32,000 nucleotides of DNA from Candidatus Syntropharchaeum caldarium (GTDB lineage Archaea; Halobacteriota; Syntropharchaeia; Syntropharchaeales; Syntropharchaeaceae), in NCBI GenBank assembly GCA_001766815.1, contig LYOS01000001.1, positions 210,001-242,000 of the forward strand, in the 5' to 3' direction. The notes beneath the pieces are model-generated. The model was not told the origin of the DNA. It was given only the letters and a program-made list of their open reading frames with translations, and did no database searches. Made by a program: the position numbers and the translations under genes. Positions 14,036 to 25,925 of this stretch are shown here, one piece after another. Position 1 is the first letter of the stretch; every line of letters starts with the position of its first letter.

Positions 14036-14263
14036 GACGTCTCGCAAAGACGATTCAGATATTTTCTGCCGGCTAAGTACGTATGTGGGTAAGAAGGATG
14101 TAGGTGGGATTAGGGAGTCCACTGGATGGCTTACAGATAAAGGGATGTATATGTGAACCTTGTTCGGGTATATCGAGAAATTTTGGGGATGTGCGAAGTG
14201 GGTTCGGGCATGAGTTGATAAGCAAAATGAGCGAGCGGAGCGTCCGCCAGAGGCGGGGCTACT

Positions 14264-15447
14264 ATGATTCCGAAGAACATAGAAAGAGAAGACGTTATTA
14301 AAGTAATGGAGGAAATCAAAAGAAATGGAATCCCAAAGGGTAGGGATTCAAGGAAATTTCTCTTGGAATTTGATGGAGAATGTTACCCTCCTAAATATGT
14401 TATTTCATTAGCCAATAAGTATGCTAATGGCGAAATATTAGATTCTGCACAATTTAGCGGAGGGAAAGAAACAAATGACTTTCTTAGAAATCTTGGCTTT
14501 AATATTATAGAACTCTCAAAGGCAAAGAAAGAGAGAGAAAGAACAAATATCCATCAAGGTGAAAGATGTCCAAAGTGTAAAGAAACCATTAGAAAACTTT
14601 TAGAAAAGATTTATGGAAGAGTTGAGGAAAACTATAAGTTTAGAGTTGGAACTCTCCCAGAAGATTTTAAAAACACTCCATATTATAGCGAATTGAAAAA
14701 AATTTACGAGAAACTCCAAAATCATAGAGGATATAAAGATTTCGTTAAAGCAAAAACTCTTCCAAATTGCGATTTCTTTGTTCCGAATCCGGGATTCATT
14801 GTAGAGTTTGATGAATCACAACATTTCACATTACCAAGAAAAATAACTTTGGGGGAATACCCTACTAACCTTGAATTGGGATTCAGTAAAGAGAAATGGA
14901 TAAGGTTATGCGAAAAAATTGATGCCAAGGATAACGATCCTCCTTATAGAGATGAACAACGCGCATGGTATGACACTTTAAGGGATTTTCTACCAACAAT
15001 ATTAGGTTTGCAACCTACTGTTAGATTATTTGCCAAAGATTTTATCTGGTGCAGTTTGAATCCCAACAATCCAGAAGATGTTGATAGATTCCAAAAAATG
15101 ATAGAATTAGGATCAAAATATTGGAAGATTCAGGTAAAGGAAGATCCCAACCCATTTTTGGCAAGAATAATTATTGCCGATGATTGGAGAGGAGAGCCTG
15201 AAGAGGCAAAGAAATTACTGGAAAACATCTACCAGAAATGGCCAAAAGGTAAAAAAGTAAAATTTATTATAACGTGTGGAGGATTTATTCAATTTGAATG
15301 GCCAAGGTCTGTGTCTAAAGAAACGATCGGCGATTCCAAAAATCCTAACAATAGAGTCGTAAATATTCTGGTTGCTAAAGCAAAAGAATCTATAAAATCA
15401 GTCTTAACAGAAAACTTGCGCAATAAATTGCAAGAGGTAACAGATTA
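14264..15447 (+). pseudogene. 5' part (codons 1-394 plus the TA of codon 395) of an IS-interrupted multi-domain gene with a restriction-type N-terminal module and a Vsr/DUF559-like endonuclease core
   Basis: The ORF runs into the IS at 15448. N-terminal motif: GIPKGRDSRKFLLEFDGECYPPKYVISLANKYANGE...FSGGKETNDFLRNLGF. Nuclease-like motif: CDFFVPNPGFIVEFDESQH (nt 14768-14824), followed by RDEQRAWYDTLRDFL...VRLF. Removing 15448-16531 restores the frame into 16532 onward. Confidence 0.75.
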
Positions 15448-15493
15448 TAGTATTAGACAAAACATTTTTAACTAACAAGTACAATTTACCTGT

Positions 15494-15859
15494 ATGGGAC
15501 GAAGACCTGAAAAAGAAGTTGTTAAGTGGCTGACCCTGGAAGAGCTGAACGAAGAGATTCGAAGTCGAAAAGTATGCGCAGAAGTCCTCAGAAAACTTTT
15601 CTTCATCAAAGAACTCTACAAAGGAGCAACTGTTCCAAAAGCAGCTAAAGAGGTGGGGGTAAGCAAAGTCATAGGCTATGTGTGGCTTGAGAACTGGAAC
15701 GAGAAAGGATTGGAAGGACTCAAACCGAATTATGGTGGAGGTAGACCTTCAGAACTGACTGAAGAGCAGAAAGAAGAACTCAAGAAAATACTTGAGAAGA
15801 GAGATGACTGGACCACAAGAGAAGTAAGAGAGTTCATCAATGAGGAGTTTGGTGTTTGA
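15494..15859 (+). pseudogene. IS630 transposase orfA (HTH part), truncated in copy A by a 1-nt T-run insertion
   Basis: It is 121 aa versus 160 aa in copy B. Copy A has ggtgTTTgaa (15851-15860) where copy B has gatgTTgaa. Confidence 0.75.
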
Positions 15860-15948
15860 ATACAGCATAAGGCATCTCAGCAGAATACTGAAATCGTTTG
15901 GGATGAAGTACTCAAAACCCTATCAGCAAGATTACAGAAGACCTGAAA

Positions 15949-16509
15949 ATGCTGAAGAAGAGCTTAAAAAAACTTGATGAGCTTGATACTGATCTGAAAG
16001 AATGCATTATAGGATTTCTGGATGAGACTTCACCTCAACTCACCTCAAATACCCAACGCTTGTGGTCATTCAATAAACCAGCTGTTAAGAAGAACACCAC
16101 AAAGATGAGAGCAAATACCTTCGGTTTCTATGCAATAAATGGGGAGAGTGTTGTAGATTTTAAAGAAAATTCAAAGAAGGAATCTGTATGTGAGTTTCTG
16201 GAGAGGATAAGAGAAAGAAATCCAGAGAAGACCATAGTAATCATTCTTGATAACTTCAGATCACACTGGGCTAAGAAAACAAGGAGAAAAGCAAGAAAGC
16301 TGAACATCATTCTTGTCTTCCTACCGCCTTACTCACCTGATCTAAATCCAATTGAGCAGATCTGGAGAATCATAAAGAGAGTTCTTTCACCTCTCTCCAT
16401 CAAAACATTGCATGAGCTTAAAAAAGTCATCTCGAAGAGTTTTTATGAGCTAACACAAAGGATCAGCTTTGCAGAAAAGTGGATTAAGAAGTTCTTGAAT
16501 ATTGGTTAA
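15949..16509 (+). CDS. IS630 transposase orfB (DDE catalytic part), copy A
   Basis: Motifs are IIGFLDETS, IVIILDNFRSH and FLPPYSPDLNPIEQIW (the IS630/Tc1-mariner DDE signature). It is 100% identical to 17339-17899. Confidence 0.8.
   Translation: MLKKSLKKLDELDTDLKECIIGFLDETSPQLTSNTQRLWSFNKPAVKKNTTKMRANTFGFYAINGESVVDFKENSKKESVCEFLERIRERNPEKTIVIILDNFRSHWAKKTRRKARKLNIILVFLPPYSPDLNPIEQIWRIIKRVLSPLSIKTLHELKKVISKSFYELTQRISFAEKWIKKFLNIG
15966..15972 (+). promoter_or_regulatory. A7 slippery run in the orfA/orfB overlap (candidate recoding or transcriptional slippage site), copy A
   Basis: The sequence is gag ctt aaa aaa act tga. orfB is in the +1 frame relative to the orfA frame defined in copy B. 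Confidence 0.4.
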
Positions 16510-16531
16510 GTTTGTTATGGTAGATACTATA

Positions 16532-16937
16532 TATAACTTTAGGTGTAGATTCGTATAAGGAGAAAATATCAACAACTCAGAATTATATTAATCAACCACA
16601 CATCGAACTTGTGTTCTTGGTTGATTTAAGAAATAACAAATTTTACTGGACTGGAAAGTCTTACCCAACACCGAACCAACAAAATGGGTTAGTAAGAATT
16701 GCAGATTTAAAAACTCACTTCTTTAACTTAGATGTCGGAAAGGTTATGATATTGGGTTGCCATGACTTAACTATATTTAACCCGAGATCTAAAAATGCTA
16801 AAAGATGGCGTAAAGACGTGAATGAAAGGTTTAAGAAAATCGCAAAAGAAGAAAAGCCCAAAATTGTATTACAACATCCACACACTATGGTAAAAGTCAG
16901 AACTTGGCTTAATGCATGGAGTTGTCTAAAGAAAATG
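16532..16937 (+). pseudogene. middle part of the IS-interrupted gene (C-terminal domain with K...GCHD motif), ending at the palindrome loop
   Basis: It is in frame with 14264-15447 once the IS and one TA are removed (...EVTDY|ITLGVDSYKEK...). It contains NNKFYWTGKSYP and GKVMILGCHDLTIFNPRS...IVLQHPHT. The track's ORF 16611-16979 is the tail of this frame running into the inverted arm. Confidence 0.7.
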
Positions 16938-17316
16938 AAGCCAAGTTCTGACTTTTACCATAGTGTGTGGATGTTGTAATACAATTTTGGGCTTTTCTTC
17001 TTTTGCGATTTTCTTAAACCTTTCATTCACGTCTTTACGCCATCTTTTAGCATTTTTAGATCTCGGGTTAAATATAGTTAAGTCATGGCAACCCAATATC
17101 ATAACCTTTCCGACATCTAAGTTAAAGAAGTGAGTTTTTAAATCTGCAATTCTTACTAACCCATTTTGTTGGTTCGGTGTTGGGTAAGACTTTCCAGTCC
17201 AGTAAAATTTGTTATTTCTTAAATCAACCAAGAACACAAGTTCGATGTGTGGTTGATTAATATAATTCTGAGTTGTTGATATTTTCTCCTTATACGAATC
17301 TACACCTAAAGTTATA
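16938..17316 (-). pseudogene. inverted duplicate of gene fragment 16532-16910
   Basis: It is the reverse complement of 16532-16910. The ORF 16926-17237 translation is identical to 16611-16979 over 100 aa. Confidence 0.85.
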
Positions 17317-17338
17317 TATAGTATCTACCATAACAAAC

Positions 17339-17899
17339 TTAACCAATATTCAAGAACTTCTTAATCCACTTTTCTGCAAAGCTGATCCTTTGTGTTAGCT
17401 CATAAAAACTCTTCGAGATGACTTTTTTAAGCTCATGCAATGTTTTGATGGAGAGAGGTGAAAGAACTCTCTTTATGATTCTCCAGATCTGCTCAATTGG
17501 ATTTAGATCAGGTGAGTAAGGCGGTAGGAAGACAAGAATGATGTTCAGCTTTCTTGCTTTTCTCCTTGTTTTCTTAGCCCAGTGTGATCTGAAGTTATCA
17601 AGAATGATTACTATGGTCTTCTCTGGATTTCTTTCTCTTATCCTCTCCAGAAACTCACATACAGATTCCTTCTTTGAATTTTCTTTAAAATCTACAACAC
17701 TCTCCCCATTTATTGCATAGAAACCGAAGGTATTTGCTCTCATCTTTGTGGTGTTCTTCTTAACAGCTGGTTTATTGAATGACCACAAGCGTTGGGTATT
17801 TGAGGTGAGTTGAGGTGAAGTCTCATCCAGAAATCCTATAATGCATTCTTTCAGATCAGTATCAAGCTCATCAAGTTTTTTTAAGCTCTTCTTCAGCAT
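17339..17899 (-). CDS. IS630 transposase orfB (DDE part), copy B
   Basis: It is identical to 15949-16509 and lies in the +1 frame relative to orfA. Confidence 0.8.
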   Translation of the reverse strand: MLKKSLKKLDELDTDLKECIIGFLDETSPQLTSNTQRLWSFNKPAVKKNTTKMRANTFGFYAINGESVVDFKENSKKESVCEFLERIRERNPEKTIVIILDNFRSHWAKKTRRKARKLNIILVFLPPYSPDLNPIEQIWRIIKRVLSPLSIKTLHELKKVISKSFYELTQRISFAEKWIKKFLNIG

Positions 17900-18353
17900 T
17901 TTCAGGTCTTCTGTAATCTTGCTGATAGGGTTTTGAGTACTTCATCCCAAACGATTTCAGTATTCTGCTGAGATGCCTTATGCTGTATTCAACATCAAAC
18001 TCCTCATTGATGAGTTCTCTTACTTCCCCTGTGGTCCAGTCATCTCTCTTCTCAAGTATTTTCTTGAGTTCTTCTTTCTGCTCTTCAGTCAGTTCTGAAG
18101 GTCTACCTCCACCATAATTCGGTTTAAGTCCTTCCAATCCTTTCTCGTTCCAGTTCTCAAGCCACACATAGCCTATGACTTTGCTTACCCCCACCTCTTT
18201 AGCTGCTTTTGGAACAGCTGCTCCTTTGTAGAGTTCTTTGATGAAGAAAAGTTTTCTGAGGACTTCTGCGCATACTTTTCTACTTCGAATCTCTTCGTTC
18301 AGCTCTTCCAGGGTCAGCCACTTAACAACTTCTTTTTCAGGTCTTCGTCCCAT
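17871..18353 (-). CDS. IS630 transposase orfA (HTH DNA-binding part), copy B
   Basis: 160 aa. It differs from copy A at T46A, R109G, F114L and G120D, plus silent changes. Confidence 0.75.
   Translation of the reverse strand: MGRRPEKEVVKWLTLEELNEEIRSRKVCAEVLRKLFFIKELYKGAAVPKAAKEVGVSKVIGYVWLENWNEKGLEGLKPNYGGGRPSELTEEQKEELKKILEKRDDWTTGEVRELINEEFDVEYSIRHLSRILKSFGMKYSKPYQQDYRRPENAEEELKKT
17876..17882 (-). promoter_or_regulatory. A7 slippery run (T7 on the + strand) in the orfA/orfB overlap, copy B
   Basis: The context is the same as at 15966-15972. It lies immediately 5' of the orfA stop (act tga). Confidence 0.4.
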
Positions 18354-18401
18354 ACAGGTAAATTGTACTTGTTAGTTAAAAATGTTTTGTCTAATACTAT
18401 A

Positions 18402-18642
18402 CATTAATTTAAACATGATAGATCGTAAGATGATAGATAGGGATTTCAAGCGACTCGACTCTCTGATTAAACGATTACTGAAAAACAATTCTACTATATC
18501 TGGAGTTATCGTCACAACTGAGTATTTTGTAAAAGATGTCCAAGGGTACATTTATTCCCATAAGGCAAGAGTTATTAGAAATGAATGGGCAAAATACTCG
18601 CTACCATCAGAATTTGAAATAGTTGGAGAAAAAGGCAATTAA
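18402..18642 (+). CDS. AT-rich open frame abutting IS copy B; either the orphaned 3' end of a disrupted gene or a small hypothetical protein
   Basis: The frame is open through the IS/TA junction and ends at 18642 (...IDRDFKRLDSLIKRLLKNN...IVGEKGN*). The track's start at 18382 lies inside the IS terminus, so it is not a credible native start. Its composition matches the 14264 gene. Confidence 0.3.
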
Positions 18643-18647
18643 TTAAT

Positions 18648-18842
18648 GCGAAAGATTGCTTTGCGATTTTCGCACTACGCGCACTGTCGTTCGCTGTGTA
18701 TAACAGGAGTGCAGTGGAGCGATTTAACGCCTGGATTGAGTCATTCAAGAGGATACTGGTGAGATTCGAGCGGCTGGCGGTGTGCTTCATGGCGGCTGTC
18801 AATTTGGCATGCATCAGGATGGTACTGAGGGTTTTGAAATGA
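18648..18842 (+). pseudogene. C-terminal remnant of an IS5/IS4-type DDE transposase
   Basis: There is no start codon, and the frame is open only from 18618. The translation ...SFAVYNRSAVERFNAWIESFKRILVRFERLAVCFMAAVNLACIRMVLRVLK* matches the conserved Y-x-R-x-x-VE-x-F-x-x-K-x-F-R-x-x-x-R-(Y/F)-E(K/R) C-terminal signature of IS5-family transposases. Confidence 0.6.
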
Positions 18843-20119: not shown

Positions 20120-21463
20120 GTGGATATTGAAGGATATGCAAAGCGGATGCTTGGAAAGGATGTTTCTGCTGATGCCATCAAGAAAGAACTTTCAAAGCGG
20201 ATCATTGAAATAAAAGGCGACCGCGTAAGTGAGGATTATGCGATACAACTCGCAGAGGCCGTTATCAAAGAGGCAACTGCCACAATCAACCCGAAAGATG
20301 CTCTTCTGAAAAGTCCTGTCACGAATGTTACAATGGGTGAGTTTGGCGTTGGCTCTCGGGGCAGTGGCGACTTCTACCTGCATGAGAAGATCGGTGAACT
20401 CCTGGGCGAAACCTCGGCGGTCGTTGATTCGAGAGAGCTCGACGATTCAGGGGTTGTTGAGGGGGGTGGTGAGTTCATCGTTCTTACCGTGGATGGGATA
20501 CACTCAAGACTGAGCGACTATCCTTTCATTGCAGGATTTCATGTGGCCCGAGCAGCGCTGAGAGATATCTATGCGATGGGTGCAACACCTCTTGCCATGC
20601 TATCAGATATTCATCTCGCGGATGATGGCGATGTCGGAAAGATATTCGATCATATAGCAGGCATAGCGGCGATTTCAGAACTTACGGGCGTTCCACTTAT
20701 AACAGGGAGCACGCTTCGAATCGGTGGAGATATGGTGATCGGTGAGCGGATGACGGGTGCAGTGGGAGCGGTTGGAATCACGGATCGCATCACGGCAAGA
20801 AGAAGCGCAGAACCCGGAGACCTGATCCTTATGTCAGAGGGTGCAGGGGGTGGTACTATCTCCACGACCGCGCTGTACTATGGCGAGGAGGATATTGTCT
20901 GGGAGACGATGAATGTGAAATTTCTGGATGCATGCAGTGCGTTGATAGAGCACGGGCTCAATCGTGAGATCCATTCAATGAGCGATGTTACAAATGGCGG
21001 AATCAGAGGAGATGCAGCAGAGATTGCAAAGGTTGCAGGTGTTAAACTCCTCTTTTATGAGGATAAGATCCGGTCGCTTGTAAATCAAAGGGTCCTTGAC
21101 CTTCTTGAAAGGCACAGAATAGATTATCTTGGGGTATCACTCGATGCGCTGCTTGTTATATCTCCTCGTGATCTATCATCGAAGATACTCGACGTTGTGC
21201 ATGATGCTGGTGTCAGGATGGATGTGATTGGTGAGGTTACAGAGGGAAATGGCTCAAGAATTGTTATCGATGGCAAAGAGCTGGATTTCACTCCCAGATT
21301 CAGAGAATCTGCCTACACACCGATAAAGAAAGTCGTTGGCGAGGTCGCTACTCAGGACTTTGATGAGATGAAGAAGGAAGTGGATCGGGGGGTTGAGGAT
21401 GCAAAGAGGAAGAAGGATTGGGTTGTTGAGAGGGTGAAAGGCACACGCCCTCATTTAATTTAA
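20120..21463 (+). CDS. AIR synthase-related (PurM/HypE/ThiL superfamily) ATP-binding protein
   Basis: FIVLTVDGIHSRLSDYPFIAGFHVARAALRDIYAMGATPLAMLSDIHLADDG is the PurM-like N-domain signature, followed by a PurM C-domain. It may be a methanogen-marker-type paralogue, but I cannot confirm that. Confidence 0.6.
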   Translation: MDIEGYAKRMLGKDVSADAIKKELSKRIIEIKGDRVSEDYAIQLAEAVIKEATATINPKDALLKSPVTNVTMGEFGVGSRGSGDFYLHEKIGELLGETSAVVDSRELDDSGVVEGGGEFIVLTVDGIHSRLSDYPFIAGFHVARAALRDIYAMGATPLAMLSDIHLADDGDVGKIFDHIAGIAAISELTGVPLITGSTLRIGGDMVIGERMTGAVGAVGITDRITARRSAEPGDLILMSEGAGGGTISTTALYYGEEDIVWETMNVKFLDACSALIEHGLNREIHSMSDVTNGGIRGDAAEIAKVAGVKLLFYEDKIRSLVNQRVLDLLERHRIDYLGVSLDALLVISPRDLSSKILDVVHDAGVRMDVIGEVTEGNGSRIVIDGKELDFTPRFRESAYTPIKKVVGEVATQDFDEMKKEVDRGVEDAKRKKDWVVERVKGTRPHLI

Positions 21464-25124: not shown

Positions 25125-25925
25125 GTGCGTGTGGCAGCAGTACAGATGCAGGTTGGGCAAAGCTTTGAAGAGAACCTTGAAGAGGCGAGGAAAAAAGTAA
25201 CTGAAGCCGCGATCAAGGGTGCAAAGGTTGTGGTACTTCCTGAGTATTTTTACCTTCCTCAGATGGGCGATCAACCACTTGAGACGGTTGCATCAGTGAC
25301 GTATGATCAGACCTTTGAACTACTGATGGCTTTATCGCATGAAAAGCAGATACTGCTTGCAGCATGTCTCATCGAACCTGATGCGCATTTATTGTACAAC
25401 ACGGCATTCATATTCAAGGATGGTGAACTGATCGGAAAGCAGCGGAAGGTGCACCTTACAGCAAAAGAGCTCGAACTTGGGATTTCTCGAGGAAACAGTT
25501 TTGATATTATCGAGATTGATCAGATGAAGGTGGGGGTACTTGTCTGTGCTGATGTATTATATCCTGAAGCGTGCAGGGTCCTCGGTATACTTGGCTGTGA
25601 TATCGTCTTCAATCCTGTTGTATCGTTCTATCATAATCCAGATATAACAAAGGGGGCAAGGGACTGCATCTTTATCTCAAGAGCTTTTGACAATACATAT
25701 TTTGTAATAAAAGCGAGTGGTGTTGGAAAAACTCCCTGGGGAGACAAGATCGTTGGAAGAAGCCTGATAGCATCACCATGGGGCGTTATTGAAAGATATA
25801 CCGATGAGAACCGCCCACAGATTCTGATCGCAGAACTCGACTTCCCACTCCTGAGGCGACTACGGGATGAGAATTACTCACTCACCGATCGAGTTAAGGA
25901 GGCGTACAAACCACTTTTTCGCTGA
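25125..25925 (+). CDS. carbon-nitrogen hydrolase (nitrilase-superfamily amidase)
   Basis: The Glu-Lys-Cys triad contexts are present: VVVLPEYF, GKQRKVHL, MKVGVLVCADVLYPE. The start is GTG. Confidence 0.8.
   Translation: MRVAAVQMQVGQSFEENLEEARKKVTEAAIKGAKVVVLPEYFYLPQMGDQPLETVASVTYDQTFELLMALSHEKQILLAACLIEPDAHLLYNTAFIFKDGELIGKQRKVHLTAKELELGISRGNSFDIIEIDQMKVGVLVCADVLYPEACRVLGILGCDIVFNPVVSFYHNPDITKGARDCIFISRAFDNTYFVIKASGVGKTPWGDKIVGRSLIASPWGVIERYTDENRPQILIAELDFPLLRRLRDENYSLTDRVKEAYKPLFR

Follow-up and report, generated by a model that had tools for sequence, protein, structure and literature searches.

The stretch of DNA analysed here (the window) covers 32,000 nucleotides of Candidatus Syntropharchaeum caldarium (contig LYOS01000001.1, positions 210,001 to 242,000, forward strand). 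At 14264–16937 it contains a gene that is interrupted by an insertion sequence (IS) and cut off by an inverted repeat, and the question raised by this locus is what the gene encoded before it was broken. In our study, the gene was found to belong to a family of single-gene proteins, about 586 amino acids long when intact, in which an N-terminal head domain of the ScoMcrA type, a highly conserved nuclease-like middle domain and a nitrilase-derived C-terminal domain are joined. We read the family as a single-gene defence nuclease that has not been described so far and that contains a nitrilase-type module, the copy in this genome being inactivated; it is a good candidate for a new type of antiviral protein. 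The function is inferred from context, and we give this reading a probability of about 0.55.

The interrupted gene and the modules of its product

The open reading frame (ORF) at 14264–15475 (403 amino acids) was identical to the annotated hypothetical protein SCAL_000256 (P0010) of Candidatus Syntrophoarchaeum caldarius, and its final eight codons were insertion-sequence DNA; this annotated fragment had no match in the contig index. Splicing 14264–15447 to 16532–16937, as proposed in the initial annotation, gave 530 codons in frame without a single stop, and the product aligned end to end with intact proteins of 581–595 amino acids. With the spliced protein as query, 1,243 relatives were found among about 5.8 billion proteins. 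Among the best 120 of the 1,243, on which all figures for identity, length and coverage rest, the identity ranged between 58 and 100%, nearly all proteins were of the length just given and the query was covered to 100%. Intact homologues, which the initial annotation had left to be searched for, exist in large numbers in archaea and bacteria, and those among the matches listed included proteins from Odinarchaeia, Bathyarchaeia, Dehalococcoidia and TA06.

The DNA of intact relatives (L005, L087, L093 and L095) was colinear with 14252–15449 and then with 16530–16937, with a 4-nt TATA overlap. This overlap and colinearity show that 15448–16529 is a precise insertion with duplication of a TA target, the left copy of which is found at 15446–15447 (from colinearity with L005, L087 and L095) and the right copy at 16530–16531. 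The interruption that had been noted from the letters alone was confirmed in this way. The inserted element (copy A) is 1082 bp long and lies on the forward strand. Its proteins matched DDE_3 (E 6.9e-26), HTH_32 (E 3.8e-16) and HTH_33 in Pfam, and its imperfect terminal repeats begin with TAGTAT; these proteins and termini, together with the TA duplication, place it in the IS630 family. The ORF for the helix-turn-helix (HTH) protein at 15494–15859 was split by an extra T at 15855 into 121 and 45 codons, followed by the DDE ORF at 15949–16509. With IS630/Tc1-mariner elements the insertion shares a DDE_3 transposase with an N-terminal HTH, a length of about 1.08 kb, the TA duplication and imperfect terminal inverted repeats, and it differs only in the frameshift of copy A and in the fold-back layout of two copies described below.

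The G+C content was 0.34 in the broken gene and 0.39 in the IS, against 0.46–0.47 in the flanks, which agrees with the islet of foreign composition beside IS debris that had been described earlier. The flanks of the islet contained housekeeping genes, namely those for FBPase, CDC48, Hsp20 and AIM24 upstream and HTH, AIRS and other genes downstream. We read the gene in the window as a horizontally acquired single gene, wrecked by the IS and by the loss of its last ~48 codons; for the source genome it would be an acquired accessory gene destroyed by an insertion sequence. On the contig L097 (GCA_053530535.1) an intact homologue was found directly 5' of GATase and AIRS-family genes, and the AIRS-family proteins at 20120–21463 of the window and 10375–11691 of L097 were 61% identical. 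This likeness may be the trace of a shared insertion site or of an old synteny.

In the following, residue numbers are those of the 530-codon window protein unless P0001, an intact homologue of 586 codons, is stated. The middle domain (codons 100–282; 14561–15109, forward strand) was the most conserved part of the protein. It contained C102-x2-C105, D170, E181-F-D183-E184-S-Q186-H187 (14804–14824) and R229-D-E-Q-R233-x-W-Y-D237-x2-R240-D241. Conservation was examined in 107 representatives of clusters formed at 50% identity, and 16 charged residues (D170, E181, D183, E184, Q186, H187, R192, D223, R229, D230, E231, R233, D237, R240, D241 and R254) were present in 103–107 of the 107. The near-invariant C102, C105, C216 and C263 suggest a zinc site, and the domain is probably Zn-stabilised, of the form CxxC...C...C. 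The motifs quoted in the initial annotation were all present in the protein, and most of their residues were invariant in the family.

The AlphaFold2 (AF2) model of the middle domain had a mean confidence (pLDDT) of 94.8. Against BFVD, the fold matched proteins named as restriction enzyme or endonuclease, homing endonuclease and DUF2726, with E 0.012–0.3, probability 0.9–1.0 and TM (query) of about 0.4. The segment C-D-F-F-x6-F-I-V-E-F-D-E-S-Q-H of the window protein has a spacing identical to that of L-D-F-A-x6-V-V-V-E-L-D-G-G-Q-H in Escherichia coli YcjD (DUF559). Aligned by hhalign with a profile of 99 DUF559 sequences, the domain gave E 0.0014 over 21 columns, just the D...ExDxxQH hairpin, in register. 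The model of DUF7255 (PF23913) scored 28.0 bits with the sister protein P0158, above its gathering cut-off, and 21.2 bits with P0001, below it, in both cases with the first half of the model only. The best reading of the domain from these conservation patterns, the AF2 model and the weak profile and fold matches is a restriction-endonuclease-like nuclease of the DUF559 type, with putative membership of that family.

The C-terminal domain is divided by the IS. Its first part (codons 283–395, with two bases of codon 395; 15110–15447, forward strand), recognised by Foldseek and a chain of hhalign comparisons, contained I-I-T-C-G339-G-F, in which G339 (15278–15280) occupies the position of the nitrilase catalytic Glu. 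The second part (the rest of codon 395 to codon 530; 16532–16937, forward strand), recognised by homology to the intact gene, hhalign and conservation, contained K437 (16656–16658), Q444, G-C471-H-D473 (C471 at 16758–16760) and H510-P-H512. In a Foldseek search of the PDB with the full-length AlphaFold model of P0001 (pLDDT 88), the top 50 matches were all from the nitrilase superfamily (Nit6803, Nit2, cyanide dihydratase and amidases), the best with E 5.7e-7 and probability 1.0; TM (target) ranged between 0.26 and 0.54 and was mostly 0.4–0.5.

The sequence profiles led to the same superfamily in two steps, from the C-terminal domain to a related domain that we call type-2 (hhalign 87.7%, E 3.4e-6) and from type-2 to bona fide CN_hydrolase (94.3%, E 1e-7). 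In these alignments T-G-K437-S-Y-P was paired with the catalytic Lys, G-C471-H-D with the nucleophile Cys, and the catalytic Glu of V-F-P-E with G339 of I-T-C-G-G. The profile link works only through the type-2 intermediate: direct hhalign comparison with the CN_hydrolase domains of six sister proteins and with the window's own CN hydrolase was not significant, and PF00795 matched neither P0001 (E <= 10) nor the reconstructed protein (E <= 1). The CN hydrolase of the window, at 25125–25925, is a canonical one (PF00795 E 1.6e-41; L-P-E, R-K, V-C-A-D), unrelated in sequence to the C-terminal domain by the same non-significant comparison.

Among 62 diverse sequences, one from each 50% cluster, G339 was conserved in 61, K437 in 60 and C471 in 61. 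In P0001 numbering, G407, D409, E428, K445, Q452, C479, H480, D481, R488, H518, H520 and W528 were present in 57–62 of the 62, so that D401, E420, Q444, H472, D473, R480, H510 and H512 of the window protein form a new invariant set beside the Lys and Cys. The Glu345 that had been proposed as the triad Glu was ruled out, since position 345 was variable in the same sequences (D16, P15, E7, K7, N6). The nitrilase reading of the initial annotation was thus upheld for the fold and for Lys437 and Cys471 and not for its Glu: because an invariant Gly takes the place of the canonical Glu, the Glu-Lys-Cys triad is incomplete. The C-terminal domain derives from a nitrilase and has retained the Lys and the Cys and lost the general-base Glu; the module either uses another catalytic arrangement (e.g. 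Cys-His) or serves in binding or oligomerisation.

A degenerate metallophosphoesterase, with G-C-H-D taken as GNHD and H-P-H as GHxH, had been offered as the alternative for this domain. The nitrilase and metallophosphoesterase folds are both four-layer alpha-beta-beta-alpha sandwiches, and G-C-H-D and H-x-H are invariant in the family. Phosphoesterases were absent from the Foldseek top 50, however, the profile-profile links went to CN_hydrolase, the DxH and GDxxDR motifs were absent, and the supposed motifs III and V were only 38 residues apart, with no motif IV between them. On fold matches and motif order we ruled this alternative out, and we see hardly any chance for it.

The head domain (codons 1–85; 14264–14518, forward strand) was assigned to PF26345 (ScoMcrA_N), which nearly all of the 120 homologues listed carried, the window fragment P0010 among them; these assignments are the precomputed annotation of the homologues, the local Pfam copy being without PF26345. 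A profile of 88 homologues matched residues 4–97 of ScoMcrA (5zmm_A) with E 0.0013, and the N-terminus of a sister protein matched the PADLOC model mREase_IV with E 3.4e-5. In ScoMcrA the head domain is flexibly attached and its function is unknown (PMC6224610). The restriction-type N-terminal module proposed in the initial annotation was therefore right, while the label of DNA recognition goes beyond the evidence. The head is followed by a variable linker (codons 86–99; 14519–14560, forward strand), eight residues shorter than in P0001 and predicted to be disordered (AF2 pLDDT <50 for P0001 86–107). A match to the head domain alone, 47% identical over residues 2–97 and annotated as hypothetical, was found on the Thermococcus barophilus MP plasmid (NC_015471.1, 26566–26862).

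The three modules were found in several combinations when 150 cluster representatives were sorted by architecture. The order head, middle and nitrilase-fold domain was present in 27 representatives, the middle and nitrilase-fold domains in 15, the head and nitrilase-fold domains in ten (about 400 amino acids each), the nitrilase-fold domain alone in 19 and the head and middle domains alone in ten. A further 14 carried the head and middle domains followed by CN_hydrolase, and 39 had the middle domain, with or without the head, joined to other C-terminal regions, several of which were the type-2 domain. In sister proteins of 740–770 amino acids the same head and middle modules were found with a PF00795 CN_hydrolase domain replacing the third module (E 1.7e-14 to 4.5e-8, above the cut-off). 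The type-2 domain, fused to the same modules, contained the motifs LFPGG, GIDG, GRKFYPT and AVCYD. That the middle domain is joined time and again to nitrilase-like domains, of three lineages, suggests that the two domains cooperate. The canonical sisters (P0150, P0158, P0179, P0185, P0190 and P0204) possessed an additional conserved C-terminal extension of about 165–180 residues with no match in Pfam, and in P0232 and P0242 a different extension of about 190 residues followed the type-2 domain. In short metagenome variants (L091 905–1424; L094 2135–2509) the middle domain was absent, and hardly any sequence separated the head from the second half of the nitrilase-fold domain.

Distribution, neighbourhood and proposed function

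Relatives were found in 206 of 185,579 species genomes, a patchy distribution that included Bathyarchaeia, Nitrososphaeria, Methanosarcinales, Thermoplasmata, Bacteroidota, Desulfobacterota, Acidobacteriota, Planctomycetota and other groups; a full-length copy was present in the cultured Desulfacinum hydrothermale DSM 13146. Archaeal and bacterial copies were 60–72% identical to the window protein, which implies horizontal transfer. The family was absent from 2.9 million viral contigs, GenBank phages and plasmids, apart from the head-domain-only plasmid match mentioned above. No neighbouring gene family recurred across 28 loci, nor did a cognate methyltransferase gene, so that the homologues are tied to no conserved operon, as a variable defence or toxin gene had been expected to behave.

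Defence genes were found within about five genes in five of the ten contexts annotated with Pfam. The first contained a type III restriction-modification (RM) system, UvrD-PDDEXK and SLFN; the second three methylase/restriction pairs and NERD; the third EVE-McrB/McrC; the fourth the BREX genes for BrxC/PglY and a PglX-like protein; and the fifth Druantia DruA and HerA-NurA. In Bathyarchaeia, the gene of P0072 occupied one and the same housekeeping site, flanked by genes for RNA polymerase subunit L/ECR1 and an MTS methyltransferase, in both assemblies compared (L102 7001–8764 and L103 6323–8086); it is listed in 77 blocks of the contig index and looks like a stable chromosomal resident of that lineage rather than an island gene.

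The analysis shows the anatomy of the gene, the identity of the head domain, the fold of the C-terminal domain, the pattern of conservation, the swapping of domains, the lack of partner genes and the inactivation; what we infer is that the protein is a nuclease, what its nitrilase module does and that it serves in defence. An intact copy would be a defence (conflict) enzyme that works on its own against foreign DNA, which the middle domain would bind or cut. The nitrilase module may contribute a second, Cys-based activity, as is thought for the nitrilase effector domains of DRT1 and DRT11, or it may provide a two-fold oligomer and the regulation that the nuclease needs. Of the earlier proposal of a defence or toxin gene that was knocked out, the knock-out by the IS was borne out, and defence is the best available reading, drawn from context.

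Several results weigh against a defence nuclease. The nuclease assignment is weak: the hhalign probability with DUF559 was 17%, with E. coli Vsr it was 0.1% and no similarity was seen, the Foldseek search of the PDB with the middle domain returned nothing significant (best E about 1, influenza PA-N endonuclease), and the window protein itself scored 20.3 bits with DUF7255 (E 4.7e-4), below the 27-bit gathering cut-off. The nitrilase module lacks the general-base Glu and so may be non-catalytic. For the head domain of ScoMcrA no function is known (PMC6224610). No defence model of PADLOC (v2), NCBIfam or Pfam matched the protein or the other architectures, and these three collections found no SRA, SBD, EVE, YTH or similar reader of modified DNA in them. 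The other five of the ten contexts were mainly housekeeping or toxin-antitoxin, and the tally was made by eye, without a background comparison. The likeness to Vsr and DUF559 claimed in the initial annotation is plausible in view of the motif and its spacing; it did not extend to Vsr in the profile comparison or to a fold in the PDB, and the Vsr and DUF559 Pfam models matched neither the window protein nor P0001.

The same contexts can be read in other ways. An accessory enzyme of DNA repair or of DNA or nucleotide modification, anchored to DNA by its other domains and hydrolysing an amide or nitrile substrate with the nitrilase-type one, would suit the half of the contexts that are housekeeping, the Bathyarchaeia copy that lies between RNA polymerase, PCNA and primase genes near Endo_dU, the possible partial synteny with the AIRS gene (61% between the window and L097 proteins), and the repair enzymes known among Vsr and DUF559 relatives. 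We consider it unlikely, as the distribution is very patchy, the identity between archaeal and bacterial copies implies that the horizontal transfer was recent, no operon partner is conserved, RM, BREX and McrBC genes are frequent neighbours, and the window copy sits in a low-G+C islet, where an IS has put it out of action and nothing evidently replaces it. The gene could also be a selfish element or toxin that spreads by its own activity, either a homing-type nuclease gene that stands alone or a toxin encoded by one gene and maintained through addiction. This is likewise unlikely: the loci have no conserved flanks and hence no homing site, an intron or intein context and an adjacent conserved antitoxin-like gene are absent, viral contigs, phages and plasmids do not carry it, and each genome seen has a single copy. 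What speaks for it is that the BFVD fold matches include homing endonucleases and group I intron proteins, that the gene is single and highly conserved across phyla, and that it is often found on very short contigs and is inactivated in the window.

Within the reading as a defence nuclease, the nitrilase module might itself act on nucleic acid, reading or hydrolysing a nitrile- or amide-bearing base (the 7-cyano- or 7-amido-7-deazaguanine of some phages) and so licensing the nuclease. The idea is compatible with the fusion of the middle domain to three nitrilase-like lineages, with a polar pocket that has been reshaped and is invariant, as are the Lys and Cys, and with the lack of any other reader domain, and we regard it as a long shot. 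If true, the module would be the first nitrilase-superfamily reader or eraser of a DNA modification and would define a new class of modification-dependent restriction.

The fold-back at the 3' end

The inverted repeat that ends the gene has arms at 15856–16913 and 16935–17992, which were 100% complementary over 1,058 nt; the outer 411 nt were 98% complementary. At its centre are 21 nt (16914–16934) of single-copy gene sequence, as judged from the repeat search and from homology to L005 that continues through to 16937. On the reverse strand, 16935–17318 is an inverted duplicate of the gene segment 16530–16913, recognised by the fully complementary arm and by second high-scoring pairs in tblastn and blastn. 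It is followed on the same strand by an inverted second copy of the IS630-family element (copy B, 17319–18399). The two copies differ by eight substitutions and one indel, all at 15566–15855 of copy A (the outer ~410 nt), and the inner 675 nt are identical. Copy B contained an intact orfA of 160 amino acids overlapping an intact DDE orfB of 186 amino acids; copy B thus looks intact, and copy A defective.

No intact relative showed homology beyond 16937, which corresponds to codon 538 of 586 in P0001, and the fold-back described in the initial annotation as ending the gene is real in the sequence. The intact tail (LPSVERYASAGRYYE...DFIV, ~48 residues) had no match in the window by tblastn, none being better than E 0.68, and of the last 61 residues of P0001 only the first 22 matched, at 16899–16964. 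The 86-codon ORF at 18402–18642 (forward strand), in the flank of copy B, had been suggested as the orphaned C-terminus. This was refuted, as tblastn with the intact tail found nothing there; the ORF is unlike the intact C-terminus and unrelated to the broken gene, and its Pfam match to RnlA-toxin_DBD (E 0.08) was non-significant. A 48-codon ORF further on, at 18696–18842 (MYNRSAVERFNAWIESFKRILVRFERLAVCF...), had no match in Pfam and looks like the C-terminal end of an IS5/IS4-type transposase; if this is right, copy B lies inside older IS debris.

The fold-back and the 3' truncation could also be a chimera of the assembly, in which case the gene would be interrupted by the IS and have a normal 3' end, running past 16937 into ...CTTCCATCGGTAGAG-like sequence, and copy B and the sequence from 18402 onwards would belong to another locus. 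We take this explanation seriously, at somewhat under even odds. The inner arms are perfect over their whole length, including 675 nt of the IS, and the nine differences between the IS copies are confined to the outer 410 nt, as would be expected had one sequence been run through twice and the path then left by way of another IS copy. A loop of 21–27 nt, typical for hairpin chimeras, is present at the junction 16937/16938, and the source genome is metagenome-derived (P0010 comes from an NCBI record of a metagenome-assembled genome). Genuine inverted duplications made by template switching look alike, however, and the gene/IS junctions and the hairpin are internal to a 492-kb contig, not at its end. 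A metagenome scan for same-strain contigs across the fold-back yielded none, the matches being only 80–95% relatives, all of them uninterrupted. Whether the fold-back is real or an artefact, the IS interruption stands and the window copy is dead.

Comparison with known systems

The middle domain resembles Vsr and DUF559 (PF03852/PF04480, PD-(D/E)xK) in the hairpin D-F-x8-[IV]-[IV]-E-x-D-x-x-Q-H with the spacing of YcjD and in a later D-x2-R...W...V-R-x-F element, and with Vsr it shares a probable structural Zn site. It differs from them in the lack of a Pfam match, in about 40 extra residues between the two motif blocks and in the lack of a Foldseek match in the PDB. With canonical nitrilases (PF00795) the C-terminal domain shares the four-layer sandwich, a Lys at a strand end (T-G-K-S-Y-P) and the Cys of the nucleophile elbow with an acidic residue two positions on (C-H-D), followed by F-x-P, whereas an invariant Gly stands for the general-base Glu, a Gln is found where the second Glu may be, H472, H510 and H512 are newly invariant and no sequence model matches.

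As a whole protein, the family is comparable to ScoMcrA and other type IV restriction enzymes. The N-terminal head domain is held in common (PF26345; 5zmm_A 4–97), both are single polypeptides with several domains arranged as beads on a string, and both have no cognate methyltransferase and are found among RM genes. The window family, in contrast, has no SBD, SRA or HNH domain, its putative nuclease is DUF7255-/DUF559-like, and its nitrilase-fold domain is in no described restriction enzyme. The literature search found no publication that deals with DUF7255 or that describes ScoMcrA_N or another restriction module fused to a nitrilase, in line with the statement in the initial annotation that no such system had been described. 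The family also offers a large uncharacterised DUF7255-like, nuclease-like domain with clear candidate catalytic residues.

It has become clear only recently that nitrilase domains can be essential to anti-phage systems. Such domains are catalytically required parts of DRT1 and DRT11, with a substrate that is still unknown (PMC13275509, PMC13436386); DRT11 needs the catalytic Cys and the nitrilase core of DRT1 builds an oligomer (PMC13436386, PMC13275509). For bacterial NACHT proteins, CN-hydrolase has likewise been listed as an effector domain (10.1101/2022.07.19.500537). Like DRT1 (UG1) and DRT11 (UG5) of the class 3 UG/Abi group, the family encodes a single-gene protein with a C-terminal domain of the nitrilase superfamily, and the PADLOC model Drt1a gave a faint match (E 0.0049) to the nitrilase part of the sister P0150. 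It differs from them in having no reverse transcriptase by Pfam and restriction-type N-terminal partners, and in a nitrilase domain that is too divergent for PF00795 and carries Gly at the general-base Glu, while the sister clade keeps a canonical CN_hydrolase. The nitrilase-type domain, in its canonical, type-2 and Glu-less lineages across many archaeal and bacterial phyla, is here coupled with restriction-type modules and not with a reverse transcriptase, and the family would provide an independent and simpler one-gene system, of about 586 amino acids, for the role of a nitrilase module in immunity.

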